A stretch of DNA of 61,600 nt from Escherichia phage PTXU04: sequence record NC_048193.1; one strand, given 5' to 3'. A program made the position numbers and the translations under genes. The notes below the pieces were generated by a model. The model was given only the letters and a program-made list of their open reading frames with translations. It was not told where the DNA came from and ran no database searches. Shown here piece after piece: positions 2,624-60,607 of the stretch (its first letter is position 1; each line of letters opens with the position of its first letter).

Positions 2624-2682
2624 GATATACTCATCACACGGGGCGCATGGAGTGCCCCACTTCGCCCAGGGAGGGCCAGCTA

Positions 2683-5595: not shown

Positions 5596-7977
5596 ATGCC
5601 GAACGCACAAAAGGGGATTAGTGAGTCCCTCGTTGGTCGCGCGCCGGACACCCAGTCGCCTTACGGCGGCGGTGGTGCTCGCGGGATTACGCAGGTAAAC
5701 GACGATCCGTACCGCGCTAACCAGATTATTCCGGGCGCTGAACTGGACATCAACCAGGCATCCTTCGGTGAGATGGACTCATTCTCCCAGTTCGAGAAGG
5801 AAGGCGATACGCTGCAAGCCGAGGAACAGACCTACGACCAACCGGACGACTCCGGCGTTGCTGGCATGTCTGAAACTGAGTGGGTAGACCTCGGTCGCCG
5901 TTGCTATGACACGGGCCGCACCTTCTACCGTCAGGGCTACCAGACGCAGCACATCAACGACACCTATCTGTTTAAAGGTCGCCACGAACCGGGCAGCAAG
6001 TATTACAGCGAAGCGTTCCGCAACCGCTCGAAAGTTTTCCGCCCGTTAACCCGCATGGCCTCCCGTAGCTGGGAAGCGGACATTGCAACCGCTCTGTTCC
6101 TGAACGATGACTACATGCACATCTCGCCACGCAACGTAACCGATCAGGATGCGGATAAAGCGGCGGCAGTGCTGAAGGAAATTGTAAACCTTCGTCTGGA
6201 TAAAATCTGGTACCCGATTTGTATCGGTGCGGCGCAGGACTCATTCATCAATGGGCCAGCAATCGCTAAGGTTTTCTGGTGGCGTGAAACTACCGTTACC
6301 AAAACTGACATTCCGGTGCTGGATGAGATGGGTAATCTGGTCGGTCTGGAAACTACCGAGAACGAAATCGTCGTTCACGATGAGCCGTACATCGACCTGA
6401 TCCTGCCGGAAAACTTTATCTTTGACCCGACCGCAAAAGCGAACGATGTCATCGGTACTGGCAAGTATTTCATCCACAGAAAAATGATGTCTGTTGATGA
6501 CGTCATGGTACGGATGGAACGCGGCGAGTGGAACATGCTGTCACCTGGCGAAATCCTGACGTGTCGCTGGGCGATGGAAGACGACGCCACGCAGCAGGCA
6601 AAACGCGGTGAAGGTAAGCCGGACCCAATCAACAACGACAACGCTGATACCCGTTACGAATCCGTGATGGTTAACGAAGTGTTCGTCCGCCGTGACGGTA
6701 TCTGGTACACCTACCACATGATGGGTACCCAGTTCTTACTGGAAATGCCTGTGGAACTGAAGAACCGCTATCACCACGGTCGCCTGCCGTTCGTTTACGG
6801 TACCTGCATGATTGAGTCTCACAACAACGTGCCGGACTCAAAAGCCCACCTGGGTAGCGAGTTGCAGAAGGCAGTGAACGAAATCAGTAACCAGCGCGTG
6901 GACAACGTTAAGCTCGTACTGAACAAGCGTTATCTGGCGCGTCGCGGTGCATCTATCGACCTGGCCGCTCTGACACGCTCCACTCCGGGCGGCGTAATTT
7001 TCACCAGCGACCCGGCTGGCGACCTGATCCCGCAGGAAGTGAACGACGTCACCAGTAGCAGCTATGAGGAAACTCAGCGCCTGACTATGGAGATGAACGA
7101 AGCGCAGGGTACCTTCAGCGGCCAGGCTGTAGCCAACAACCGCGAGATGAACGAAACCGTCGGTGGTATGAAGTTGCTGAGCAACGCCGCTACCAAAGTG
7201 AACGACTTCGACATCCGTACCTTCGTTTTCACCTTCGTGCGCCCGGTGCTGGAACTGTTCATGCTCACCGTTCAGTATTATGAGAACGACGAGACGATCA
7301 TGCACATCGCCGTCGACAACTCGGCCTACTTCCCGCGCCTCAACGTGGAAGACCTGACCGACGATCTCATGACTAAACAGCTTGAGATGAAAGTCGATAC
7401 AGGTATTGGTGCAACTGATCCGGTACAGCGCGTAAACACCTTGATGTACGGTGTGACGACGGTAATGCAGTTACCCGGCATGGCTGACAACATGGATAGT
7501 AAAGCCGTCGGCAGCGCTATCTTCTCAACGCTCGGTCAGGGTGACGGTAGTAAATTCTTCCCGAATCTGGCGAAGAACTTCCAGGAGCCGCCTCCGTCAG
7601 AACCACCAGTTGATCCGCTGGTACAGGCTGCACAGGAAGAAGCGAAAGGTCGAGTGCAGGAAGCGCAGATTAAAGCTGAACTGGAACTCCAGAAGCAAGC
7701 CAACCAACTGGCCGCCGACCGCGAACTGAAGTTGATTCAGATGGCGCTCGACGCAGAACTGGAAGGTAAGCGCGGTCAGCTTGATATGTTGCTGTCTATG
7801 CTGGATAATGAAACCCGGCTACGGATTGCCGAAGCACAGGACAAGACCAAGCGTCAGACCACCGCACTCCAGCACGGAAGCTCATTGCAGCAGACGGCGA
7901 TGCAGCAGGCCCAGCAAATCGGCCAGCAGGTAACGCCTACTCAGCAGGAAGTTATCAATGAGTCAAACGTCAAGTAA
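5596..7977 (+). CDS. portal protein
   Basis: 793-aa protein between terminase and scaffold/capsid genes; size, position and coiled-coil C-terminus fit a podovirus-type portal. Positional call. Confidence 0.65.
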   Translation: MPNAQKGISESLVGRAPDTQSPYGGGGARGITQVNDDPYRANQIIPGAELDINQASFGEMDSFSQFEKEGDTLQAEEQTYDQPDDSGVAGMSETEWVDLGRRCYDTGRTFYRQGYQTQHINDTYLFKGRHEPGSKYYSEAFRNRSKVFRPLTRMASRSWEADIATALFLNDDYMHISPRNVTDQDADKAAAVLKEIVNLRLDKIWYPICIGAAQDSFINGPAIAKVFWWRETTVTKTDIPVLDEMGNLVGLETTENEIVVHDEPYIDLILPENFIFDPTAKANDVIGTGKYFIHRKMMSVDDVMVRMERGEWNMLSPGEILTCRWAMEDDATQQAKRGEGKPDPINNDNADTRYESVMVNEVFVRRDGIWYTYHMMGTQFLLEMPVELKNRYHHGRLPFVYGTCMIESHNNVPDSKAHLGSELQKAVNEISNQRVDNVKLVLNKRYLARRGASIDLAALTRSTPGGVIFTSDPAGDLIPQEVNDVTSSSYEETQRLTMEMNEAQGTFSGQAVANNREMNETVGGMKLLSNAATKVNDFDIRTFVFTFVRPVLELFMLTVQYYENDETIMHIAVDNSAYFPRLNVEDLTDDLMTKQLEMKVDTGIGATDPVQRVNTLMYGVTTVMQLPGMADNMDSKAVGSAIFSTLGQGDGSKFFPNLAKNFQEPPPSEPPVDPLVQAAQEEAKGRVQEAQIKAELELQKQANQLAADRELKLIQMALDAELEGKRGQLDMLLSMLDNETRLRIAEAQDKTKRQTTALQHGSSLQQTAMQQAQQIGQQVTPTQQEVINESNVK

Positions 7978-12625: not shown

Positions 12626-14896
12626 ATGGCTAATTATGATCGCTTTGCATTGCAAGGTGGCCTCGACACGGCCACTCCTTATCTCAGCCGCCAGCCCGGT
12701 ACGCTGACTGCCGCCACAAACTTCTCCCCTGAGACGGATGGCGGCTATGCGCTTGAGGCTGGTTACGAACGTTTCGACGGTCAGCCAGCACCGAGCGAGA
12801 CTGTGGTGTACAGCCTCAACATGACGGACGATGTTACAGGTCTGCTACCGGGTGACGTTATCACAGGATCAACGTCCGGCGCGGTAGCAACTGTCGGCGC
12901 GGTTTTCGGTAAAGAAATCTGGTGTGATGTCACTAATGGTGTCACATTCATGCCGGGTGAGAATATCGGCGCTAACGTTATCGAGTACCTCTCAACGGAA
13001 GCTATTGACCAACGCAGCTACAGTCCGACAGCTACACGCACTACGATTCTGTTGATGTCACCGCTGGCGGCTAACACACTGGAAGTCGGCGATGCGTTAC
13101 TGGGCTTATCCTCAGCCGCTACAGTGGAAGTGAACATCATCAAAGTTACCAACGCTGACATGTGGGTATACGTGTCCACGCTGGCTGGCGCGGTGCAGAT
13201 TGGCGAGACGATGGTGAAGGGTGATGGTACCGAGTACAAGGTTAACGGTGAGTACGAAGTGGAACCTATGCTGGCCTCCCCGGATACTCCCGCAGGTGTC
13301 TTCTTTTACCTGAGCGAATTACGTCGCGCTAAGATTGGTGTGGTGCCGGGTATCAACAGTGTGCGCGGTGTATGGGATCTGGAAGGTGTCGTGTACTCGT
13401 TCCGTGACGCTGACGCCGACAGCACCAAAATGTACCGCAGTACGGTGACAGGCTGGCAGGAAGTCGACCTGGGCTTTACGATGGGATGGGATACGCGCCC
13501 GTCTACAACCACTGACGATGAACTCGGTCCGGGTGATTCAATCCGTGGTGTGACGTCCGGCGCTACGGCAACCGTCGGCTGGGTAGGTTACATCGCTCAG
13601 GATCACTCGTCAGGCTACCTGACGTTCACCAACGTGACCGGAACGTTCCAGGCGGGTGAAGTAATTCGCAACGACACGTACAGCGTCGACATTGGTGAAG
13701 TGACTGCGGCGGCCACGGCTAACGTACTCCCGGCTAACGGTCTGTACCGTTTCACCAACCACAACTTCTTCGGCGGTCTGAACACCTTCGCAATGTACGG
13801 CGTGAACGGTGTCGGTAACGGTTTCGTATACAACGAGACGAACGGCTTCTCATTCATCCCGACGCAGGCAGATACGGATACACCGTTCGACGTGGTTGAA
13901 TACAAAGACCACTTATTCTATGCGTTCCCGAAAGGTAGCCTGCAACACAGCGTGCTGGGTAGTCCGATGGACTGGAGCGGTGGCCTCGGCGCACTGGCGG
14001 TCGGCGTAGGTTCGGAAATCTCTTCACTGATTCCGGCACCAAAATCGCTTATTATTTGTACAGAGAAAGACATCCAAAGTCTTGAGGGGAGCAGCATCGA
14101 TGACTGGCAAAAAGAGGTTATTACTCAGCATACTGGTATCTCTAAATTTACTGGGGTGTACCAGTCTCAATCACTCGTACTCGCCCAGGCAGGTATCATT
14201 AGTATCGACCGGACTGACCAATTTGGTAACTTTAGCGACGGTACTATCAGCGACATCATCCGAGACACCATCGTACCTAACTATTCTCGCTGCACTTGCG
14301 CAATGGCAAGGAAGAGTCGAGGGCAGTACAGACTACATTTCGAGGGAGACGTCAACATTGCCCTTTCCACTAACCAGGGGAATGTGATCGGCTTCTCGAT
14401 GTTTGACTACGGCGGTCTGACGGTGCGTACGGCGGTCAACCCGTACGGTCGTATCTTCTTCATTTCGGACACCGGATACGTCTATCAGGATTCCGTAGGG
14501 GCCAGTAACGATGGTGGTGAACGGTCATCTGTATTCCGCACATCCTTCGCCAACCAGGGTGACCCGGATACTCGCAAGCGGTACCGCCGTATGGACATGA
14601 GTATCCGTGCTCAATCTTACCTTAACGCGCGTGTCGTTTTCTCGTACAATAAAGGCGCATCCACGCCGCAGGCATCGGTCGAATCTGGCCTGTTAGTGTC
14701 CGGCGGCGGACGCTGGGATTTGTCGCTGTGGGGGCAAGTCTACTGGGATGCCACGGAAAACCCGACAATCTCGTCTGACATTGACGGTTTAGGTTTTGAC
14801 ATCAGCACCATGCTGTACATCCGGTCACGAATCCATCCGCAGTTTACCGCAGAGGATTTATCATTCGAATGGTCACCACGTAGAAAGGTACGATAA
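12626..14896 (+). CDS. virion structural protein (tail tube B-like by position)
   Basis: 756-aa beta-rich protein between the 220-aa protein and the fibers. Confidence 0.45.
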   Translation: MANYDRFALQGGLDTATPYLSRQPGTLTAATNFSPETDGGYALEAGYERFDGQPAPSETVVYSLNMTDDVTGLLPGDVITGSTSGAVATVGAVFGKEIWCDVTNGVTFMPGENIGANVIEYLSTEAIDQRSYSPTATRTTILLMSPLAANTLEVGDALLGLSSAATVEVNIIKVTNADMWVYVSTLAGAVQIGETMVKGDGTEYKVNGEYEVEPMLASPDTPAGVFFYLSELRRAKIGVVPGINSVRGVWDLEGVVYSFRDADADSTKMYRSTVTGWQEVDLGFTMGWDTRPSTTTDDELGPGDSIRGVTSGATATVGWVGYIAQDHSSGYLTFTNVTGTFQAGEVIRNDTYSVDIGEVTAAATANVLPANGLYRFTNHNFFGGLNTFAMYGVNGVGNGFVYNETNGFSFIPTQADTDTPFDVVEYKDHLFYAFPKGSLQHSVLGSPMDWSGGLGALAVGVGSEISSLIPAPKSLIICTEKDIQSLEGSSIDDWQKEVITQHTGISKFTGVYQSQSLVLAQAGIISIDRTDQFGNFSDGTISDIIRDTIVPNYSRCTCAMARKSRGQYRLHFEGDVNIALSTNQGNVIGFSMFDYGGLTVRTAVNPYGRIFFISDTGYVYQDSVGASNDGGERSSVFRTSFANQGDPDTRKRYRRMDMSIRAQSYLNARVVFSYNKGASTPQASVESGLLVSGGGRWDLSLWGQVYWDATENPTISSDIDGLGFDISTMLYIRSRIHPQFTAEDLSFEWSPRRKVR

Positions 14897-22648: not shown

Positions 22649-22689
22649 ATGTGCTATGCTTCCCCTATCAACAAGGGGGAGCATTTCTA

Positions 22690-25600
22690 ATGGCTAGTAA
22701 CATCGACCTTTCTGGACTGGACTTATCCCAGCCAAATCAACAACCTGCAACGAAGAAGTCTGAAAAGACTGCACCTGCTATTGACCTGTCGACGGTTAAC
22801 TTTGACCTGAGCGACGTAGACTTTTCCGGTATTGGAAATGAGAAGGCTGTCACAGAACCAGCAAAAGAAGATAGCTGGGGCGACGTAATTTACAAATCTC
22901 TCGCCGCGATGCCTGAGCGTATGCAACGTTCATGGCAGGGTATCAAACAAGGCGTGGCCGTTAAAGGTCAAGACCTGACTGACGGGGTGCTGGCTGAACG
23001 CCTGCGTAACGATCCGTCATATGCTGCCGAACTGGGGATTGACCCGGCTACCTTTACCGCTGCCGAAGGCGACACGTATGCGACCAAACTGCAAAAGAAT
23101 AAAGCTCTCTACGCCGCTATTGATAAAGCGAAGGCCGCAGAACTGAATAAGGATGCCGACTTTGTTGCCGCGCGTGATGAAGGTCTTCGCCTGTCAAACG
23201 AGATTGCCAAAACTGCACCGAAGACTGGTGACGAGTGGTCAGCTAAAAACCTGGTATCCACAATCCTCACTGGCGCGCAGGACATGTCTCCGGCAATCCT
23301 GACGTCCATCCTGTTGAAGCGTCCGGTCGCTGGCCTCGCTGAGATGACTGGTCAGGCGTACGGTTCCTACTATCAGGACTCAATCGACAAAGGTCTGTCT
23401 CCGGCAGAAGCCGATAACCGCGCTACCATGTTCGCCGCACTGGAACCAATCACTGAAGCGGTACCGCTGGGCCTCATCATGAAGAAGGGTGCGACTAGCC
23501 TGACTGACCTCGGTAAGTCTGCAATGGCTGAAGGTATCCAGGAGTCCGCTACCCAGGCTATCCAGAACGGTTACGACATTGGTGTGCTTGACGAAGATAT
23601 GACGGTAGGCCAGTTCCTGAATGACGTGGCGTTCTCCGGTGTAACTGGTGCTGGCGTAGGTGGCGTGCTGCATGGCGCGGTGCAAGCTCCCGGCATGGTC
23701 AAAGACTGGAAGGATAACCGCTCTGTTAACAACGCTATCGGTGACGCTGCGGCTGAGTCCGGTCAGGCGGTAGAAGGCGTGGACCCGAACGAGTACGACG
23801 CTGTGCGTGCTGAGATGGGCGGCGGTGACGTGCTGGACCAGATGGTTGAACAGGCATCTCCTGCAATCACTGAAGCTCGCAAGTCTGCCTACATGGAAGC
23901 GCGCGCCCAGGGTATGTCTCCGGCTGAAGCGATGGCCGCATCCCGTGAAGTCGGTGAAGTCGACGCTATGGATCAGATGGTCAGCGAACTGTTCGACTCC
24001 CCGGACTCCATCTACTATGCGAACAAGGCAAGCGCCACTAACGCACCGCAGTCTGTAGCACAGATGGTACAGCAGCAGGTAGCGCAGGGTGACATTGGTC
24101 CGCTTCCGGGCGAGACTAAAGGTCTGCCGTCTCCGGGGCAAACTTCCACCATCGCTATGCCCGGTCCAGTTGCGCAGGTTAAAGAGGCCACTGGCTACAA
24201 TCCACGCGGTGCGGCTGAAGAGTCTCCGGTACTGGCAGCAGTCCAGCAGAAACTGGAAGCGCCAGCACTGCCGCCGCAGGTTACTGAAGCTGTGGTACCG
24301 CCAGCACTGCCGCCTAAAGCTGAAGTGACTCCGCCTGCGTTACCGCAGATTGACGTAGCCGCTGCACTGGAACCTACCGTTCCTGCCGCTGAGCCAGCCG
24401 CTGCCGAGGTTAAACCGAAGCCAGCACTGTTTGCCCGTACCAAAAAGAAAGCCGCGCCAGAAGTCGATACAGAAGCACTGGCCGCCGAAGAAGCACGTCA
24501 GGCAGAACTGAAGGCGAAAGGTGACGAGGCTGTAGCCAAATACGTTGAGCGTGAATCCGTGCGTCCGGCGTTACCGGGTAAGAAGCCGCCAGCTATTCAG
24601 GTCACCAACAAGATCCTGAAGGAAGCCAACGAGCGTGGCGTTGACGTCGGCAATAAAGTGAACTGGAACGGCAAGGAGTATTCCGTCGATAAATTCCAGG
24701 GCCGTGCTGTACGTCTGGTTGATGAGAACGGCAACGGTCACATTGTTGATGCCCGTGAAATCAACGTGCCGTCTGTGGTACCGGAAGGTATGAAGCGTGT
24801 ATCCCAGGAAACCAAAGACGCCCGTGAGCGTTACGACCTGGCCCCTGTAGAGTTCGAAGATGAGCGCAACCTGGGTGAGATGGTTACCGATGCACAGCAG
24901 GCGACCGACGATGTACTGGCGCAGTCTGCCGAAGTTCAGCGTGACCTGGGTGAGATGATCGCTGAGAAGGAGAAGGACAACGCCGCAATTGAAGGTGAGT
25001 CCACTCGCGTTACCGACGTTGAAGGTCGTGTTGGTTTTGAACCAGTGGAAGGTACCGACCTGGACGGGAAGTATGCGAAAGACTCCCACGGTGAAGTCCG
25101 CAAGATTACTGGCGTGCAAGGTCGTCGCTTCGTGCTGGACAATGGCGACATCATGATTCGTCGCATTGGTGACACCAACGTGATGGATGCTCCACCTAAA
25201 GGCGCACGTAAAGCGATGTCGATGGAGGAACGTATTGTAGCTAACACGCTGCAAGGTATGCTGCATTCACTGAACGATACCAAGCGTCCGCTAAACAAAC
25301 TGCGCGAAAACATGTCTCACGCTAGTAATCAGGTTGATGAACAGTACCGCCATCTGTACGCGCCACTGAAGGGTAAGACTCGCGCGGCCATGCGCAAGGA
25401 ACTGGAAGACCGTATGTCCAGTATCGCTGAGCAGTCACCTAAAGGTCTGAGCAAAGAAAGTCAGGCGACGGCTGACCGCCTGCGTGAGAAGTCTTCCGCA
25501 CGCGCTGAGTCTTTCGAGAAGTCACTGGAAGATTTCACGCGTGGTATGAAACCGCTGGTACGTCGCAACTACATTCGCGCCCTGGAGAAGATGCAACCGG

Positions 25601-28600
25601 ACGGCATTACCCTGAAGGAAACCATCGACCGTGCGTATGCCCGTGGCGATAAAGTTGACTCCCGTGACATGTCGGCACCAGCCAGACATTACGTGGCCTA
25701 CAAAGAAGCTCGCGTACCGAAGAAGACTGACAAGCCGGACGTTACCCCGAACGTCGACTATCACACGCTGGTAGGTAAAACTTTCGAGGAAGACGGCGAG
25801 ACGTTCACCGTCAAGTCTATTCACGACACGTACCTGGCTACCGAAGACTCACAAGGTCGTCGTGAGATTTTCGGCAAGGATTACGCTAAGCGTAAGATCG
25901 ACAAGCAGTCCGGCGCGGCCAGCGTTAAGCCTGCGACCGAGAAGAAAGGGATGTCACCTGAAGATGTGGCTGTGGTTGCTACCGACTTCCTGAAGAAGTT
26001 CAAAGGTGCGCAGGCAATCAACATGTCCGTCATGCAGCGTCAGGAAGACATGGGTATCGACCTGCCGGAAGGTAGCGTACTGCTCGGCTTCTACGATGCT
26101 GGCAACGTGAGCGCCAAGCTGATCTCTGAAAACCTGACCAGCAAGGAAGAAGTGGAAGCGCTGTTGCGTCACGAAATCATCGTGCACTACGGCCTGCGCG
26201 CTCGCCTGTCTAAACCGGAATACGACGCTGAGATGGATAAAATCCTGGCCGCTGATAAGTCCCCGGCGCTGGCGAAGTATTTCAAAACTGTACGCGAGCA
26301 ATACAGCGACCTGTATGACATGAACTCACCTGACGCACAACGCATGATGGCTGAAGAAGTCCTGGCGCTGGCGGCAGAAAACCCGGCTATCCTGGAGAAG
26401 TCCAACGTCATTACCCGCGTGATTGAAGCTCTGCGTCAGTTGATGATTAAAGCCAAACTGATTGACGGTCGCGCCAGCATGGAGTCAGTACGCCAGCTTA
26501 TTCAGGCCAATGCTCAGTACCTGCGTGACAACACTGTCAACCGTGACGACGTGCGTAAGTCTCTGCCGCCGATGCAATACAGCGCGCCGAAGAACTTTGC
26601 CGCCAGCCTGAAAAAGAAAAATGACATCGAGTCTGCGGAAGTGGACGAAGACATCAAGCAGGGTATGCGTGACACCATGTACCGCGATGACCGCTCTCTG
26701 TTCCAGCGCATCAAAGACATCATGAAAGACAACGGTCTGACGATGGAAGGCTTGTATCAGAAAGGCGTGGATGACCTGTACACCATCGCCAAATATGAGA
26801 AGGCTGGCAACAATGGTGAACTGCGTCAGGGTAAAGAGTCAGCGTACAAGATGGCAATGCTGGCGAAGAACGTGAACAGCACCGTGGCCGTCGCAATGAA
26901 CCACGGCGCTCCGGTATACAAAGACGGCGGCATCAGCCTGAACAAGAACACCAAAGGCTTCACCGAAATCTTCAAGCCAGTGCTGGAGATGAAAGGTAAC
27001 ATGCTGCCAGTGTGGGAATACTGGGCGGGTGCTGTGCGTGCTAAGCGCTTGATGGAAGAAGGCCGCGAAAACCTGTATACCGAGAAGCAGATTAAAGACA
27101 TCATCGACTATGTTAACCGTCGCCCGGAAATGCGTAAGGTGTTCAACCAGGCACACAAAGACTGGCGTGAGTTCAACAAAGCTATCCTCGACTTCGGTGA
27201 GCAAACTGGCATCGTGGATCCTGAGCAGCGTAAACTGTTCGAGTCCGATGACTACGTTCCGTTCTACCGTGTGGATGAGGAAGTGGACCGTGTGACAGCA
27301 CCGTCTGGAAAACGTGGCCTCGCTGATCAGTCTTCCGGTATCCGCCGTCTGAAAGGTGGCGCTGGTAAGATGGACATTCTGGAGAACATGGCGCGTAACG
27401 TTAACCACATGATCACCTCCGGCTACAAGAACGCGGCCATGCAGAAGGTGCGTGACATCACCATCAACGCAGCGCTGGAAGAAGTACCGCATAACTTCAA
27501 GCCAGTCGGCATCAGCAACGAGCAGATGAAACGTGCGCTGACCAACCTGGGTCTGAAGGTTGAAGGTATGACCGCTGAGCAGATGGCGCAATACTCCAAC
27601 CTGTTCACCGCAGTAGCACCGCAGGGCGCTAACATTATCTCCGTGCGTGAAGGTGGTAAGCCGAAGTATTACGAAGTGACGGATCCTCAGTTGTTGGAAG
27701 CTATCGCAGGTGTTGGCCCGGAAGCCGTTGATACCCTCATCAACATTCTCGGCTGGCCTAAGCGTGTGTTCACCGCAGCCGTGACGTCAACGCCTAACTT
27801 CGTTATGACCAACTTCGTACGTGACGTGATGGGTAACTATGTGCAGATGGCTAAAGCAACTGGCCGCAACGAGACGTCAACGATTGTCAAAGATGTACTG
27901 ACATTCCGTCCGTTCTTTAAAGCGTTCCAGGGTGCGATGCGTTCTATCCGTAACGATAACATGACTGTCGATTACCATGTGGCTGGCGGCATGATGGGTG
28001 GTTATGACAACTCACGTCCAGAGTCGGTTGCCAAAAACCTGCGCAAGCTGGAGAAAGGCGGCACCATCATTAACTCACCGAAGAAGCTGTGGGAAATGTA
28101 CAGCAAGTTGCTGACCGCATCTGAACAGGCCACGCGCATGGGTGTGTACGAAGATGTCCTGAAGCACACTGGGGATCCGGTGGAAGCGGCATACCAGTCT
28201 AACGATGTGCTGAACTTCAGCCGCCGTGGTAGCAGTCGTTTGACCAAAGCGGTCATGGCGATCACCCCGTTCCTGAATGCCCGTGTACAGGGTCTGGACC
28301 GTATGGTGCGCGGTGGTAAAGAGAACCCGAAAGCCTTCATGCTAAAAGGTGCTCTGCTTGTTGGTGCAACGATGGCCCTTATGGCAATCAACGCAGACGA
28401 CGAACGTTACTGGGCGCTGCCGGAACACGAACGTGATTCCTTCTGGATCATCTTCGCTGGCGACACTCGCTACCGTATCCCGAAACCGTTCGAACTGGGA
28501 GCACTGTTCGGCACTATCCCTGAGCGTGCATTCGAAGCGCTGTACCGTGATGACCGTATGTTCGGTGCACGCATGGGCTTCATGCTGGGTAACACCTTCG

Positions 28601-29283
28601 CGATGGACTGGCCTCAATTCTTCAAGCCAATCTACGAAGACCAGACCAACATGAACAGCTTTACTCAGCGTCCGGTTGTACCGCAGTCACTGCAACGTCT
28701 GGAAGCTAACCAGCAGTACAGCACCACGACGCCGGAATGGATTAAGGATGTGAGTAAGGCGTTACCTGAAGCTGCCCCGGAATGGATGCGTAGTCCGCTG
28801 CGTCTCCAGCATATGATTGAAGGTTACACCGGAACAGTCGGTCAGTACATCATCGGCGTAACGGACGTGGCCTACCGCAAAGGAACGGGTACCGAAAAAG
28901 TTGCCCCGGCTAAAAAGGATTTTGATTACCCGGTGGTAAAAACTTTCGTACGTGGCGGTGTGTCCGGCGACAAATACACCGACCGTCTGTACCAGATGAG
29001 CGAGAAGGCTGGTCAAACGTACGGTACCCTGAAGGCGTACAAAGACCAGAAGAACATGCAGGCGTATCGGGAGTTCAAGACCGAGAAGGCCAGCGTGTTG
29101 TCTGCCCGTAAGTCAATTGAGAAAGGCGTTGCCCGGATGCAGAAGTACAACCGCCAGACGAAAGAGATTTACGCGAACGACAGTATGTCACCTGAAGCGA
29201 AGCGTGCGGAACTGGACGCCTTACAGGTTAAGAAGAACGAACTGGCGAAAGAATTGAGTGACAAATATTGGATGTTGTTTTAA
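22690..29283 (+). CDS. giant virion-associated protein (~2200 aa; putative internal/ejection protein)
   Basis: ORF-track frame 22651-29283; start moved to ATG 22690 with AAGGGGGAG RBS. No P-loop or polymerase motif recognised; last gene of the structural block; followed by hairpin plus T8 (29324-29354). Confidence 0.55.
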   Translation: MASNIDLSGLDLSQPNQQPATKKSEKTAPAIDLSTVNFDLSDVDFSGIGNEKAVTEPAKEDSWGDVIYKSLAAMPERMQRSWQGIKQGVAVKGQDLTDGVLAERLRNDPSYAAELGIDPATFTAAEGDTYATKLQKNKALYAAIDKAKAAELNKDADFVAARDEGLRLSNEIAKTAPKTGDEWSAKNLVSTILTGAQDMSPAILTSILLKRPVAGLAEMTGQAYGSYYQDSIDKGLSPAEADNRATMFAALEPITEAVPLGLIMKKGATSLTDLGKSAMAEGIQESATQAIQNGYDIGVLDEDMTVGQFLNDVAFSGVTGAGVGGVLHGAVQAPGMVKDWKDNRSVNNAIGDAAAESGQAVEGVDPNEYDAVRAEMGGGDVLDQMVEQASPAITEARKSAYMEARAQGMSPAEAMAASREVGEVDAMDQMVSELFDSPDSIYYANKASATNAPQSVAQMVQQQVAQGDIGPLPGETKGLPSPGQTSTIAMPGPVAQVKEATGYNPRGAAEESPVLAAVQQKLEAPALPPQVTEAVVPPALPPKAEVTPPALPQIDVAAALEPTVPAAEPAAAEVKPKPALFARTKKKAAPEVDTEALAAEEARQAELKAKGDEAVAKYVERESVRPALPGKKPPAIQVTNKILKEANERGVDVGNKVNWNGKEYSVDKFQGRAVRLVDENGNGHIVDAREINVPSVVPEGMKRVSQETKDARERYDLAPVEFEDERNLGEMVTDAQQATDDVLAQSAEVQRDLGEMIAEKEKDNAAIEGESTRVTDVEGRVGFEPVEGTDLDGKYAKDSHGEVRKITGVQGRRFVLDNGDIMIRRIGDTNVMDAPPKGARKAMSMEERIVANTLQGMLHSLNDTKRPLNKLRENMSHASNQVDEQYRHLYAPLKGKTRAAMRKELEDRMSSIAEQSPKGLSKESQATADRLREKSSARAESFEKSLEDFTRGMKPLVRRNYIRALEKMQPDGITLKETIDRAYARGDKVDSRDMSAPARHYVAYKEARVPKKTDKPDVTPNVDYHTLVGKTFEEDGETFTVKSIHDTYLATEDSQGRREIFGKDYAKRKIDKQSGAASVKPATEKKGMSPEDVAVVATDFLKKFKGAQAINMSVMQRQEDMGIDLPEGSVLLGFYDAGNVSAKLISENLTSKEEVEALLRHEIIVHYGLRARLSKPEYDAEMDKILAADKSPALAKYFKTVREQYSDLYDMNSPDAQRMMAEEVLALAAENPAILEKSNVITRVIEALRQLMIKAKLIDGRASMESVRQLIQANAQYLRDNTVNRDDVRKSLPPMQYSAPKNFAASLKKKNDIESAEVDEDIKQGMRDTMYRDDRSLFQRIKDIMKDNGLTMEGLYQKGVDDLYTIAKYEKAGNNGELRQGKESAYKMAMLAKNVNSTVAVAMNHGAPVYKDGGISLNKNTKGFTEIFKPVLEMKGNMLPVWEYWAGAVRAKRLMEEGRENLYTEKQIKDIIDYVNRRPEMRKVFNQAHKDWREFNKAILDFGEQTGIVDPEQRKLFESDDYVPFYRVDEEVDRVTAPSGKRGLADQSSGIRRLKGGAGKMDILENMARNVNHMITSGYKNAAMQKVRDITINAALEEVPHNFKPVGISNEQMKRALTNLGLKVEGMTAEQMAQYSNLFTAVAPQGANIISVREGGKPKYYEVTDPQLLEAIAGVGPEAVDTLINILGWPKRVFTAAVTSTPNFVMTNFVRDVMGNYVQMAKATGRNETSTIVKDVLTFRPFFKAFQGAMRSIRNDNMTVDYHVAGGMMGGYDNSRPESVAKNLRKLEKGGTIINSPKKLWEMYSKLLTASEQATRMGVYEDVLKHTGDPVEAAYQSNDVLNFSRRGSSRLTKAVMAITPFLNARVQGLDRMVRGGKENPKAFMLKGALLVGATMALMAINADDERYWALPEHERDSFWIIFAGDTRYRIPKPFELGALFGTIPERAFEALYRDDRMFGARMGFMLGNTFAMDWPQFFKPIYEDQTNMNSFTQRPVVPQSLQRLEANQQYSTTTPEWIKDVSKALPEAAPEWMRSPLRLQHMIEGYTGTVGQYIIGVTDVAYRKGTGTEKVAPAKKDFDYPVVKTFVRGGVSGDKYTDRLYQMSEKAGQTYGTLKAYKDQKNMQAYREFKTEKASVLSARKSIEKGVARMQKYNRQTKEIYANDSMSPEAKRAELDALQVKKNELAKELSDKYWMLF

Positions 29284-29323: not shown

Positions 29324-29354
29324 GCCCTTTCCACTTTGGTTAGGGCTTTTTTTT
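29324..29354 (+). terminator. putative rho-independent terminator after the giant gene
   Basis: Imperfect stem (GCCCT ... AGGGC) followed by a run of eight T. Confidence 0.4.
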
Positions 29355-29399
29355 GTGCTATGCTTTTGGTGGGAGTTCTAAGGGCATGGAGCATTTCAT

Positions 29400-29774
29400 A
29401 TGGACATGGGATATTACAACATGAACAAGCAAATCAGAGTGGAAATGCTTGTCGGCATGGTGACATTAACGTGGTCAATCGTGGCGGCAGTATTCAAACA
29501 GCCAGTCATTATTGATGAGTTAACTGGTATCATGCCTGGCGCATGGTGGGTATTCTCAGGCATTGTAATTGGTGGCGCTCAGATCTATATCTCCCGCAAC
29601 CCTGAGCGATGGATGGGAACATTCAGCCACTGGTGTGTAGCGTTCTTCAGTTGTATCTTCTGGTGTTATCTCGGCATGGCCGCACAAGCCGCCGCAGTCG
29701 GAGTAGTTCCCATCCTGATTTTCTGGTCTACCGCTGGCGTCACTTTATGGGAGTTGGCACATGTTCGAACTTAG
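29400..29774 (+). CDS. membrane protein (about 4 predicted TM segments)
   Basis: 124 aa; hydrophobic stretches LVGMVTLTWSIVAAVF, WWVFSGIVIGGAQIYI, WCVAFFSCIFWCYLGMAA, VGVVPILIFWSTAGVTLW; GGAG RBS. Confidence 0.45.
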   Translation: MDMGYYNMNKQIRVEMLVGMVTLTWSIVAAVFKQPVIIDELTGIMPGAWWVFSGIVIGGAQIYISRNPERWMGTFSHWCVAFFSCIFWCYLGMAAQAAAVGVVPILIFWSTAGVTLWELAHVRT

Positions 29775-29994
29775 TTCAATCCCGGTGGACGCTCCGTTAC
29801 CTTTCATTGCGATCGCAGTGTTATTCAACCTGGTACGCCATGCGTTGAATCTTCACCACGAACGTAAGAAGGAGGCAGCGGAAGAGGCCACGAACGAAAG
29901 GATTGTTGTGTTGTCGTCGAAGCTGGCGAAGGCGGAACAGACTATCGAGCACTTGAGGGAAGAGGTGGAACGATTGAAAAACAAAGGGGCTTAA
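29761..29994 (+). CDS. small TM plus coiled-coil protein (spanin-like or antiholin-like?)
   Basis: 77 aa; N-terminal TM (PFIAIAVLFNLV) then charged coiled coil; GGGAG RBS; stop lies in the loop of the bidirectional terminator. Confidence 0.4.
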   Translation: MFELSSIPVDAPLPFIAIAVLFNLVRHALNLHHERKKEAAEEATNERIVVLSSKLAKAEQTIEHLREEVERLKNKGA

Positions 29995-30005
29995 CGCCCC
30001 TTTTT
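29986..30005. terminator. bidirectional rho-independent terminator at the convergence of late (+) and early (-) blocks
   Basis: AAA GGGGC TTAAC GCCCC TTTTT; the stop codons of 29761-29994 (+) and 29991-30191 (-) both sit in the loop. Confidence 0.6.
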
Positions 30006-30191
30006 GATACTCGCTGCAATCTTCAGTTCGACAGGTACGCGATTGAGATCGCGGTGAATGCCTACATCCGGTGGTGCGGAAATACGTAGACCGACGTTAC
30101 CATTCTCAGAGTTCTCTACCGTCACGACAATATCGTTACCGATGTAGACGCTCTGACCTTCACGTCTGGTAATACGGAGTCCCTTAGCCAT
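29991..30191 (-). CDS. CsrA-like RNA-binding protein (carbon storage regulator homolog)
   Basis: ORF-track frame 29991-30257 trimmed to ATG 30191 (GGAG RBS 6 nt upstream). Product MAKGLRITRREGQSVYIGNDIVVTVENSENGNVGLRISAPPDVGIHRDLNRV aligns with E. coli CsrA ([21 protein letters not shown] ... VRIGVNAPKEVSVHREE), including the beta1 TRR and beta5 HR(D/E) RNA-binding residues. Confidence 0.6.
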   Translation of the reverse strand: MAKGLRITRREGQSVYIGNDIVVTVENSENGNVGLRISAPPDVGIHRDLNRVPVELKIAASIKKGR

Positions 30192-30417
30192 TCTTCTCCG
30201 CCTTAGCTTTCTTAGCTTTGATGACGCGACTGATCGCCACCAGTAAAGTAATGACACCAGACACGACCGGGAGATATTCTTCCGGTACCACAGCCTGGAA
30301 TAAATGCGGGGCAGTCTGCCACACTACTAATGCTGCATCAGGTACCGTGGTCAACACGGTAGTAACGGCGATACCGATAGTGATACCAGCGTCATGCAGC
30401 GCTTTGGATTTGTCCAT
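30184..30417 (-). CDS. holin (putative, two TM segments)
   Basis: 77 aa; two hydrophobic helices and a lysine-rich C-terminus (KAKKAKAEKNG); strong AAGGAG RBS; immediately downstream of the endolysin. Confidence 0.6.
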   Translation of the reverse strand: MDKSKALHDAGITIGIAVTTVLTTVPDAALVVWQTAPHLFQAVVPEEYLPVVSGVITLLVAISRVIKAKKAKAEKNG

Positions 30418-30473
30418 CTGTGAAGCTCCTTATATTGGCGTCCTTGCCAGGATTGACGACCTCGACTGGCCGC

Positions 30474-31004
30474 TTAGATGTTCACGCGGTTGGCGACCCA
30501 TCCATAAATGAATGAGCGATTTTTGGCGTTACTTTCGGTAAGCTCAATATACCGCACACACTGTAGGCTGTTAAGCATTTTCAATAATACTTTCGTACCA
30601 GCGCTACCACGCAACCGCAGGAAATCGTCCAGGGCATTAATCGTACGTTTACCGACCTTACCATCCACTACTAGGCCAGCGCCTGACGCGGCGTTGAGCG
30701 CACGCTGGAGGAATTTACCAGCCACCGCCGGACCCATGTTCACGCCAGTGTCTACCACTTCAGCACCGATTGCTGAGTCGAGTTCCGCCACCACGTAGAA
30801 TCCGGTGTTCACTACATAATCGTTGTAGTAAATCTCATACGCTGTAGATTGCGGCAAATCTTTCATGTGACCTTTGTACCCGGCGTTGCGAGCAACCTTC
30901 TCGGTAATTCCGTATTTGGTGGCACCGCCCGGATCATTCGGATGGTCCACGTATCCACCTTCGACCCGGATAATCTCTTCAATGATTTCGCGTACTGTAC
31001 TCAT
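30474..31004 (-). CDS. endolysin (GH108-like lysozyme with PG_binding_3-like domain)
   Basis: 176 aa; N-terminal VEGGYVDHPNDPGGATKYGIT matches the GH108 catalytic signature; AAAGGAG RBS. Confidence 0.8.
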   Translation of the reverse strand: MSTVREIIEEIIRVEGGYVDHPNDPGGATKYGITEKVARNAGYKGHMKDLPQSTAYEIYYNDYVVNTGFYVVAELDSAIGAEVVDTGVNMGPAVAGKFLQRALNAASGAGLVVDGKVGKRTINALDDFLRLRGSAGTKVLLKMLNSLQCVRYIELTESNAKNRSFIYGWVANRVNI

Positions 31005-32975: not shown

Positions 32976-33019
32976 ACTTGACGGGGCTAATGTACCCCGC
33001 CAGTAATTCACCGTCAAGT
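32976..33019 (-). terminator. nested inverted-repeat hairpin at the 3' end of the polymerase gene
   Basis: Outer arms ACTTGACGG (32976-32984) and CCGTCAAGT (33011-33019) enclose an inner CGGGG-loop-CCCCG hairpin. Terminator or regulatory element; function not established. Confidence 0.35.
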
Positions 33020-35854: not shown

Positions 35855-35896
35855 GATTTCGGATTCCATAAAACGCCATCCGTGGCGTGGGGATTG

Positions 35897-44911: not shown

Positions 44912-44938
44912 AATGGATTACTTGACAAAGGAGGATGT

Positions 44939-53726: not shown

Positions 53727-53912
53727 TTACTTTTCGCCACCCTTAGCCGCAGCATCACGGGAAGCCTGAGCGTTCTCGGCGCGTTGCTGCGCGTTAGGTG
53801 AATCCGACTCAGCGCGCCCGGTTTGACCGGATACGTTTGGATTGTACCCGACGTTGGCAGAGCAACCAGCCAGCAGAGTAGCCAGAACGATAGCGATGAT
53901 AGATTTAGACAT
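53727..53912 (-). CDS. small lipoprotein (signal peptide with lipobox LLAGC)
   Basis: ORF-track frame 53727-54050 trimmed to ATG 53912 (AGGAG RBS 8 nt upstream); MSKSIIAIVLATLLAGCSANVG is a canonical lipoprotein signal; 61 aa. Confidence 0.5.
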   Translation of the reverse strand: MSKSIIAIVLATLLAGCSANVGYNPNVSGQTGRAESDSPNAQQRAENAQASRDAAAKGGEK

Positions 53913-60578: not shown

Positions 60579-60607
60579 ACTATAAGTAGTGGCGTCCCTG
60601 CCGTCAA
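60579..60607 (-). promoter_or_regulatory. putative sigma70-like early promoter
   Basis: On the - strand: -35 TTGACG (60607-60602), 17-nt spacer containing CAGGGACG, -10 TATAGT (60584-60579). Confidence 0.45.

Follow-up and report, generated by a model that had tools for sequence, protein, structure and literature searches.

A phage-encoded CsrA as a candidate regulator of lysis timing in Escherichia phage PTXU04

Phages are known to schedule lysis through late transcription, dual-start antiholins and RI-type antiholins. How Escherichia phage PTXU04 (genus Xuquatrovirus) schedules lysis is a question raised by its lysis region, where the endolysin gene (gp30), the holin gene (gp29) and a gene for a CsrA-like RNA-binding protein (gp28) follow one another on the minus strand and face two plus-strand genes for membrane proteins, gp26 and gp27. 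The window analysed here is the complete 61,600-bp PTXU04 genome (NC_048193.1), with coordinates as in the public record. We propose, with slightly less than even confidence, that this locus is the lysis region of PTXU04 and that the phage CsrA sets lysis timing post-transcriptionally; the regulatory part we infer from sequence. The cassette itself is known, as Korf et al. (2019, PMC6563267), who first described the genome, had already annotated the holin and endolysin, and both are annotated in the CRISPRi-ART re-annotation. The open reading frames (ORFs) gp26 to gp30 used here are exactly those of the published annotation (CRISPRi-ART supplement for NC_048193). The biology of PTXU04-type phages has been called largely enigmatic (PMC11990801).

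The csrA gene and candidate CsrA sites in the lysis region

The features on which the proposal depends are the following.

29991-30191, minus strand: gp28, CsrA-like RNA-binding protein of 66 amino acids (aa); its start overlaps the holin stop by 8 nucleotides (nt)
30184-30417, minus strand: gp29, holin of 77 aa; its two membrane helices are followed by a basic tail
30474-31004, minus strand: gp30, soluble endolysin of 176 aa with GH108 and PG_binding_3 domains
30418-30473, minus strand: intercistronic leader between endolysin and holin, with hairpin 1 (GCGGCC...GGUCGU), hairpin 2 and the Shine-Dalgarno sequence
30436-30449, minus strand: hairpin 2 of the holin leader, UGGC-AAGGAC-GCCA (DNA form GGCAAGGACGCC)
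30426-30431, minus strand: holin Shine-Dalgarno sequence AAGGAG

Relatives of the locus were drawn from a protein collection and one metagenome scan, with about ten further loci on public-assembly contigs (designated below by numbers with the prefix L). In the phage collection, Pondi (92.9% identity) and HelliStehle_Bas95 (89.3%; hereafter Bas95) come closest, both measured over 29.0-32.0 kb. We refer to the loci with a gp26 at least 56% identical to that of PTXU04 as the PTXU04 clade. All of them carry gp26 and gp27 on the plus strand, a terminator, and then a minus-strand block of CsrA, holin and GH108 endolysin. In four far more distant genomes (approximately 58-61 kb; gp26 24-36% identical) gp26-gp27 are still convergent with CsrA and the terminator is kept. 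Scans of IMG/VR for close relatives with gp26, gp29 and the gp27 alignment gave no matches, and Rfam at gathering thresholds gave none in the window.

gp28 matches the Pfam CsrA family (PF02599) with 46.5 bits against a cutoff of 27, and its residues 6-50, which cover beta1 to beta5, align to the RsmE/CsrA structures 2JPP, 7YR6 and 1Y00 (E = 3e-6 to 2e-5). The arginines of the TRR and HR(E/D) motifs are RNA-contact residues of CsrA. The beta1 'TRR' and beta5 'HR(D/E)' motifs are invariant in the reference and in all PTXU04-clade phage CsrA sequences. Scores against the NCBIfam bacterial CsrA equivalogs did not reach the cutoffs (36.1 bits versus 73 and 28.3 versus 70.1). By these comparisons gp28 belongs to a divergent phage CsrA subfamily, whose C-terminal tail differs. 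Every PTXU04-clade locus has an overlap of 8, 4 or 1 nt between the holin stop and the csrA start, and from this overlap we read holin and csrA as translationally coupled. The fourth csrA codon, for glycine, is GGA in 10/12 sequences (5/7 lineages); GGA makes up 8% of PTXU04 glycine codons, and the codons beside codon 4 vary synonymously.

In 5/5 PTXU04-clade lineages the holin leader contains a short hairpin rich in G+C, which lies 22-26 nt upstream of the holin start. The stem differs between lineages (UGGC/GCCA, CCGC/GCGG, UCGCA/UGCGA, CGC/GCG and CGCA/UGCG) and the loops AAGGAC, AGGGAC or AGGGAU, CGGA and AUGGA place a GGA in the loop in 4/5 lineages and 9/10 sequences. A second GGA, that of the holin Shine-Dalgarno sequence, lies 11-14 nt downstream of the loop GGA. 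Pairing of hairpin 2 holds in 82.5% of alignment cells versus 26-58% in shifted-register controls, with compensatory changes in two of the four stem pairs. The loops match the core of the CsrA consensus RUACARGGAUGU from in vitro selection (SELEX), quoted in PMC2896534. A two-site layout has been shown experimentally for CsrA repression of glgC and of ColE7 cel (PMC2896534). With one GGA in a loop and another in the Shine-Dalgarno sequence, the holin leader has, by sequence, the layout of a CsrA-repressed mRNA and is a putative CsrA target. We also considered the hairpin upstream of the holin as a promoter and rejected it, as the -35 is poor, the spacing is wrong and the -10 is not conserved in relatives.

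The leader of the convergent gp26-gp27 genes resembles that of the holin.

29365-29399, plus strand: gp26 leader with two GGA, one in a hairpin loop (UGGGAGUU) and one in a stem-sequestered Shine-Dalgarno sequence

The gp26 leaders of 10/10 orthologues carry 2-3 GGA per 50 nt, versus at least two in 15% of random 50-nt windows. Many of these GGA lie in AUGGA, AGGGA or ACGGA loops of short hairpins with covarying stems, which include CGA/UCG, AGA/UCU, UGA/UCA, CCG/CGG, GCAU/AUGC and GCUC/GAGC. Because this leader is similarly GGA-rich, gp26-gp27 may share the CsrA regulon. Elsewhere in the genome, the gp36 leader (35870-35896, minus strand) contains ACGCCA-CGGA-TGGCGT followed by TTTT, with the Shine-Dalgarno sequence in the loop, and there are two GGA-loop hairpins in the gp3 leader (2624-2682, plus strand) and three in the gp46 leader (44912-44938, plus strand). 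The phage CsrA may act on these leaders too, or the hairpins may be there by chance.

The partners of gp28 in the cassette have clear family assignments. gp30 matches Pfam Glyco_hydro_108 (PF05838; 76.3 bits, cutoff 21.2), Pfam PG_binding_3 (PF09374; 60.8 bits, cutoff 24.6) and PHROG 315 endolysin (7.8e-44), and scores 70.2 against the NCBIfam equivalog 'holin-associated N-acetylmuramidase', below its cutoff of 240. It is by family a standard GH108 endolysin. The gp30 N-terminus (MSTVREIIEEIIRVEGGY) is hydrophilic, without a hydrophobic stretch, signal or signal-anchor-release sequence, which points to a soluble endolysin in need of a hole-forming holin. A pinholin/signal-anchor-release endolysin system was rejected because gp30 has no N-terminal signal-anchor-release domain.

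gp29 starts 56 nt downstream of gp30. A hydropathy scan gave two segments, corresponding to helices at approximately residues 14-32 and 48-66, and these are followed by the tail KAKKAKAEKNG. The protein matches DUF7940 (30.2 bits, cutoff 27) and PHROG 1356 'holin' (3.5e-8), and tblastn gives 33-44% identity to genes that carry a holin annotation in many phages. In the two records that we inspected (Ab26 and Kmi2C) the holin-annotated homologue adjoins soluble endolysin and Rz-like spanin genes; the endolysins partnering these two checked holins are likewise soluble. A search for a record of an experimental test of the gp29 holin family found none, and no dual-start antiholin motif was found in gp29. 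From its size, topology, position and homology, gp29 is assigned as a holin of class II topology. These Pfam and PHROG matches bear out the initial annotation, made from the letters of the sequence, in which gp30, gp29 and gp28 had been read as a GH108-like endolysin, a holin and a CsrA-like protein.

Transcription of the lysis genes and the proposed timing of lysis

Three transcription signals define the minus-strand unit.

32989-33017, minus strand: early-type sigma70 promoter (ACTTGACG, 17 nt, TACATT) just downstream of the DNA polymerase gene, heading gp34-gp33-gp32-gp31-gp30-gp29-gp28
30546-30574, minus strand: internal sigma70-type promoter of holin-csrA (TTAACA, 17 nt, TATATT), located within the endolysin gene at its 3' end
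29983-30003, both strands: bidirectional terminator (AAAGGGGC-TTAAC-GCCCCTTTTT) with an 8-bp G+C-rich stem

The minus-strand genes run in the order DNA polymerase gp35, gp34, nucleoside triphosphate pyrophosphatase gp33, gp32, RdgC-like gp31, endolysin, holin and CsrA. Six minus-strand promoters have the form ACTTGAC(A/G)-17-TA(T/A/C)NTT (60607, 55947, 51303, 48756, 47073 and 33017). The one at 33017 is kept in Pondi and Bas95, and the ACTTGAC(A/G) signature is common to five early-region promoters.

The internal holin-csrA promoter, newly found here by a consensus scan, matches 10/12 consensus positions. We checked synonymous sites over the last 75 codons of eight representative PTXU04-clade endolysin genes. 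Among 33 columns with an invariant residue and a degenerate codon, 30 use at least two codons; the other three (Leu146 CTT, Asn147 AAC and Tyr154 TAT) all lie within the promoter hexamers. Ile155 is ATT in seven sequences, and L009 has Ser AGT, which still gives a TATAGT hexamer. This confinement of synonymous constraint to the two hexamers is good evidence for a functional, conserved promoter of sigma70 type. With it, holin-csrA would form a unit of its own, with a leader of approximately 120 nt, besides being the tail of the longer operon.

The hairpin at 29983-30003 has U-runs on either strand and contains the stops of gp27 and gp28, which overlap by 4 nt. Its structure is kept in every relative examined, the distant ones included, and we take it to be a real bidirectional intrinsic terminator. 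The initial annotation had already drawn the convergent layout across such a terminator and had placed the lysis genes on the minus strand, and both hold, the genes lying behind sigma70-type promoters. It had also called the endolysin and holin the last catalytic genes of an early/middle unit. Their position downstream of the replication genes agrees with this, but the description is incomplete, as holin-csrA also has a dedicated internal promoter. Its idea that the CsrA-like protein may regulate lysis is now backed by the GGA-loop hairpin, the GGA in the Shine-Dalgarno sequence, the coupling and the GGA at codon 4.

In the mechanism we propose, holin mRNA would be made from host-type promoters, the one at 33017 and the internal one in the endolysin gene. 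As the first is of host type and the second near consensus, holin mRNA is probably present well before lysis. A CsrA dimer, of the phage and possibly also of the host, would bind the loop GGA and the Shine-Dalgarno GGA of the holin leader and so block ribosome entry on the holin-csrA message. Because csrA is translated through its coupling to the holin, the circuit would be a negative feedback loop. The feedback would keep holin synthesis low, and the delay until holin reaches its triggering level would be set after transcription rather than by late transcription. This specific picture of phage CsrA as a lysis clock, coupled to the holin (in relatives, to the o-spanin), binding the holin leader and perhaps that of gp26-gp27, and restraining holin by feedback, is a tentative one to which we give a probability well below even.

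The published knockdown data touch on this picture. CRISPRi-ART knockdown of gp28 gave small plaques and a 'Semi-fit' score, and ectopic expression of gp28 was toxic or interfered with infection; the authors state that its role had no earlier test (PMC11879866). The small plaques and the toxicity are compatible with mistimed lysis, and specific to it in neither case. gp30 is likewise scored 'Semi-fit'.

Several observations weigh against CsrA control of the holin. The small plaques could stem from effects on host mRNAs or from guides hitting the overlapping end of the holin gene, and knockdown of the holin itself is 'Not fit' (-1.32 versus a threshold of -1.1). Within the clade, the L004 loop is UUGA rather than GGA. 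Covariation of the holin stem gives modest support, since the stem is short (4 bp, two covarying pairs) and the sequences are related. Under a lax definition, 12% of random windows contain a hairpin with a GGA loop, as do the regions upstream of 23% of PTXU04 genes, and CANGGANG is not enriched genome-wide (24 found versus 30 expected). For these two reasons the case for CsrA targets rests on positional conservation and covariation and not on counts. Leaders of the distant relatives resemble CsrA targets less clearly; there, csrA comes after the o-spanin gene and not the holin, and its codon 4 reads GGG or GGT in 2/3. In L028 the csrA-gp26 junction stands without an adjacent endolysin or holin.

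The GGA motif may also, or instead, have a role at the DNA level or elsewhere. The spacers of three early promoters (60607, 51303 and 48756) contain GGA-loop palindromes (GGCAGGGACGCC, GGCATGGAAGCC and GTCAGGGACGAC), and the 13-mer GGCAGGGACGCC is nearly identical to the holin hairpin GGCAAGGACGCC; as a promoter spacer, it lies outside the transcript of that promoter. Two of the three palindromes are unchanged in Bas95, which has no equivalent of the one at 60607. Read-through RNA might carry them as CsrA sites, or they could act as a DNA operator or be due to chance.

The same locus could instead be an ordinary lysis cassette in which gp28 has its targets among the mRNAs of the host (for instance those for carbon storage, motility, biofilm formation or defence systems) and owes its position to inherited gene order. 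The GGA hairpins would then be plain Shine-Dalgarno or intercistronic structures, and timing would come from the properties of the holin and the strength of the promoters. The genomes of the group are collinear, which makes synteny alone weak evidence, GGA hairpins are frequent by chance, and host manipulation has been proposed in the literature for other phage and plasmid CsrA homologues. The related Vibrio phage 1.232.O has a csrA apart from its amidase, the L028 junction persists without neighbouring lysis genes, and Pseudomonas temperate phages carry csrA too. An ordinary cassette leaves unexplained, however, the covarying stem, the conserved CA-N-GGA loop and its fixed distance to the holin Shine-Dalgarno sequence, the rare GGA at csrA codon 4, and the universal stop/start overlap with the preceding lysis gene. 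We consider action on host mRNAs possible, at a probability clearly under one half. In L028 (6572-8153), the minus-strand genes upstream of csrA encode a 202-aa protein and an Rv2179c-like exonuclease, with no holin or endolysin; since other genes stand there, its lysis genes must be elsewhere in the genome.

The gp26-gp27 operon and the spanins

What the convergent plus-strand genes do, and how the outer membrane is breached, are the remaining questions of the locus. The plus-strand features are the following.

29324-29354, plus strand: terminator after gp25, hairpin GCCCTTTCC-ACT-TTGGTTAGGGC followed by T8 (from sequence and fold)
29336-29364, plus strand: promoter-like element of gp26-gp27, -35 TTGGTT, 17 nt, TGn-extended -10 TATGCT, overlapping the terminator
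29400-29774, plus strand: gp26, four-helix inner-membrane protein of 124 aa, predicted N-in/C-in
29761-29994, plus strand: gp27, single-pass membrane protein of 77 aa with a C-terminal coiled coil; its start overlaps the end of gp26 by 14 nt

Every relative has a hairpin and T-run at this position after gp25, with stems that differ in sequence. Directly 3' of the T-run, all PTXU04-clade loci have a -10-like TAT(G/T)CT or TAGGCT, and in L004 and L008 the promoter-like element reads TTGGCA at -35 and TATTCT at -10. The 12-mer TGTGCTATGCTT and the 10-mer GGAGCATTTC each occur in exactly two genome copies, upstream of gp25 and of gp26. From these signals, gp26-gp27 appears to be a small separate operon between two terminators with its own start signal. 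The two genes had been described as the end of the plus strand; they do occupy that position, but with the terminator at 29324-29354 and their own promoter-like element they are not simply the tail of the late operon.

The copies of TGTGCTATGCTT and GGAGCATTTC lie within 22650-22689 and 29354-29399, a GCTATGC (207-213) stands 39 nt upstream of gp1, and the gp25 and gp26 leaders both fold with the Shine-Dalgarno sequence sequestered in a hairpin. The gp1, gp25 and gp26 signals may represent a shared class of promoter and leader (TGnTATGCT) for plus-strand structural genes.

The five-gene block from gp26 to the endolysin is constant across the clade and its flanking genes differ; upstream, some loci have a polyvalent protein of 2,200 aa and others a MuF-like one of 733 aa accompanied by extra genes. 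gp25 (22690-29283, plus strand; polyvalent, 2,198 aa; Pfam LPD38 in relatives) is the main variable region beside the conserved lysis block. Bas95 and several contigs have instead an approximately 733-aa MuF-like protein and one or two extra genes (2380-5694 in L001); in Bas95 two extra genes near the MuF-like protein are on the opposite strand. Vibrio phages D65 and 1.232.O, which have a related capsid, were rejected as relatives of the locus because only the structural module is common to them, and their genes at the equivalent position (136 aa and 79 aa) do not encode membrane proteins.

gp26 had been described as a protein with four transmembrane helices and gp27 as one with a transmembrane helix and a coiled coil, and the hydropathy scan and structure model agree. 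Three gp26 segments exceed the hydropathy threshold, and an AlphaFold2 model (mean predicted local distance difference test 88.9) has four long helices; charge distribution suggests an N-in/C-in orientation. gp26 has no matches in Pfam, PHROG or NCBIfam. Fold searches returned generic four-helix bundles from the PDB and, from phages, four-helix membrane proteins that are uncharacterised, one with the annotation holin/anti-holin; none is at E <=0.001 and all are at E >=0.01. gp27 has one N-terminal hydropathy segment, a short helix, and weak matches to coiled-coil-type families. Membrane helices are oriented by the positive-inside rule. The N-tail of gp27 is acidic (E/D3 and the invariant D10), and its membrane helix is followed by RHALNLHHERK, in which the basic stretch R(H/K)AL.LHH.R is invariant in the alignment; for these reasons gp27 is predicted to be N-out/C-in with its coiled coil in the cytoplasm. 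Homologues of both proteins were found in this phage group only. Both genes are 'Not fit' in CRISPRi-ART and are dispensable in laboratory conditions. Most likely they modulate holin timing as accessory proteins or serve some other function in the membrane.

One form of such a role would be that of an antiholin or holin partner in the inner membrane that delays or sharpens gp29 triggering. Phage P2 LysA, a four-helix membrane protein affecting lysis timing, is the model for this. The two genes always adjoin the csrA-lysis block, their products are inner-membrane proteins with coupled translation and a leader resembling the GGA-rich one of the holin, the holin has no dual-start motif of its own, the gp26 model is like four-helix phage membrane proteins of which one is annotated holin/anti-holin, and dispensability is usual for antiholins. 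On the other hand, profile searches and the family databases (Pfam, PHROG and NCBIfam) gave no homology to known antiholins, the fold matches are weak (E >=0.01) and to generic bundles, the L028 genes have no lysis genes beside them, and synteny is weak evidence within one collinear group. We place an antiholin role on the unlikely side.

The arrangement of terminator, promoter, two genes and terminator is also that of a moron-like module, which might serve superinfection exclusion or another envelope function. A promoter-like element of their own, terminators on both sides, and small membrane products that are non-essential in CRISPRi-ART all fit this. Typical morons are variable, whereas gp26-gp27 are kept throughout the phage group, with identity falling to 24%, and their promoter motif is common to the structural genes gp25 and gp1, so we consider a moron rather unlikely.

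The initial annotation had raised the further idea that these proteins could be spanin-like. gp27, with or without gp26, would in this case be a spanin equivalent disrupting the outer membrane; the PTXU04 clade has no recognisable spanin, and gp27 combines a membrane helix with a coiled coil and has a marginal match to PHROG 89 'Rz-like spanin' (E = 0.037). The predicted orientation, however, puts the coiled coil in the cytoplasm and is the opposite of the type II N-in/C-out topology, on which account gp27 was rejected as an i-spanin. Its soluble part of approximately 50 aa is short for spanning the periplasm, and a lipoprotein partner is absent. Furthermore, L025, L027 and L029 have a canonical i-/o-spanin pair alongside their gp26 and gp27 homologues, which indicates that gp26 and gp27 do not replace spanins. 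The idea is largely refuted, and we regard it as very improbable.

In these three distant relatives an overlapped i-/o-spanin pair lies between holin and csrA.

L025 6719-7166, minus strand: spanin pair
L027 approximately 6700-7166, minus strand: spanin pair
L029 6770-7241, minus strand: spanin pair

The i-spanins (97-108 aa) have an N-terminal membrane helix and a C-terminal motif common to all three; basic residues precede the helix in L025, the one sequence in which this was checked. The o-spanins have a lipobox (LLTGC or LMSC) and conserved cysteines, with 49% identity between L025 and L029, and the o-spanin gene runs at its 3' end into csrA, sharing the first 38 or so nt of the latter in another reading frame. 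By these features the pair is a standard overlapped i-/o-spanin pair.

The absence of an adjacent o-spanin, asserted in the initial annotation, held up in a search for embedded or separate o-spanins. An all-frame scan found no lipobox ORF at the lysis locus (29-31 kb), and no o-spanin was found to be conserved anywhere in the PTXU04 clade. No homologues of the relatives' i-spanin or o-spanin were found in PTXU04-clade sequences, nor any credible lipobox ORF in the whole genome of Bas95. The simplest reading of these sequences is that the PTXU04 clade lost the spanin pair, and this loss would have set the holin stop directly on the csrA start.

Other candidates in PTXU04 were rejected. gp71 (53727-53912, minus strand), the only annotated PTXU04 lipoprotein, has 61 aa, the lipobox LAGC and a weak match to the Lpp/OprI alanine zipper; it is common to Pondi only and adjoins gp72 (38 aa, a single helix). 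As an o-spanin it is contradicted by its location in the early region, the lack of an adjacent type II membrane partner and its absence from Bas95, and as a unimolecular spanin of the T1 gp11 type by the lack of a C-terminal membrane helix. A function in exclusion or in modifying the envelope is more likely for gp71 than one as a spanin. A lipobox ORF with a very good signal (MTGKKRLLLSILVSLNLLGC), out of frame in gp16 (14100-14387, plus strand), is not conserved in Bas95 and is for this reason probably due to chance. No disruptin-like small cationic peptide was recognised at the lysis locus; gp27 has a net charge of approximately -1, and gp34 looks like a zinc ribbon.

Relation to known systems and meaning

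The nearest mechanistic precedent, by analogy, is host CsrA repressing the lysis gene of colicin E7, the one known case linking CsrA to lysis. The ColE7 cel leader has the same two-site layout as the PTXU04 holin leader, and its repression is translational (Yang et al. 2010, PMC2896534). There, however, the CsrA is that of the host, its binding has been shown, and the target is a colicin-release lipoprotein, whereas PTXU04 encodes its own CsrA, coupled to the lysis gene and known from sequence, and the putative target is a phage holin.

The holins of Pseudomonas phage vB_PaeS_SCH_Ab26 (Septimatrevirus) and Klebsiella phage Kmi2C are 38-39% identical to gp29 and, as in PTXU04, are clustered with a soluble endolysin. 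Their cassettes lie before the terminase genes, have no csrA and end in spanin genes (an Rz/Rz1 pair in Ab26 and one annotated Rz-like gene in Kmi2C), in contrast to the order endolysin-holin-csrA of PTXU04, which has no spanin gene. L025, L027 and L029 share the PTXU04 backbone of gp26 and gp27 on the plus strand, terminator and minus-strand CsrA, and further upstream on that strand they, too, have a holin of DUF7940 type and a GH108 endolysin; they differ in the spanin pair between holin and csrA and in having less evident GGA-hairpin leaders.

Small phage-encoded CsrA-family proteins like gp28 are present in Pseudomonas phages F116 and phi297 and in Burkholderia phage CSP3. The CSP3 csrA lies upstream of the major capsid gene and is called a moron in the CSP3 paper, whereas that of PTXU04 follows the holin. 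Identity of gp28 to the Pseudomonas phage CsrA proteins is 46-54%, over approximately 45 residues only. A literature search for a function assigned to any phage CsrA found no report.

Approximately 13-15% of phages of Gram-negative hosts have no identifiable spanin (Kongari et al. 2018, PMC6139136; Holt et al., bioRxiv 10.1101/515445). PTXU04 would fit the Kongari subclass with one lipoprotein gene, here gp71, and no linked i-spanin. Like PTXU04, coliphage phiKT has neither an identifiable two-component nor a unimolecular spanin; it uses a disruptin, the kind of peptide not recognised at the PTXU04 lysis locus.

Judged from its genes and signals, the PTXU04 region differs from known cassettes in having a CsrA gene as the last, apparently translationally coupled member of the lysis operon, in holin and convergent gp26-gp27 leaders that look like CsrA targets, in a predicted holin-csrA promoter within the endolysin gene, and in a clade without the spanins of its distant relatives. 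PTXU04, Pondi and Bas95 grow on E. coli without spanins, and the spanin-bearing relatives are known only as metagenomic contigs; this contrast within one group is relevant to the question of how phages get through the outer membrane when they have no spanins. If the proposed role of CsrA is true, it would be the first assigned function of a phage CsrA and a new mode of lysis timing, found in a coliphage clade that also has no spanins. It would add a post-transcriptional timer, built on an RNA-binding protein, to the known ways of scheduling lysis. The present analysis turns the gp28 knockdown phenotype into a concrete hypothesis for which the RNA sites and the promoter are defined and a knockdown tool exists.

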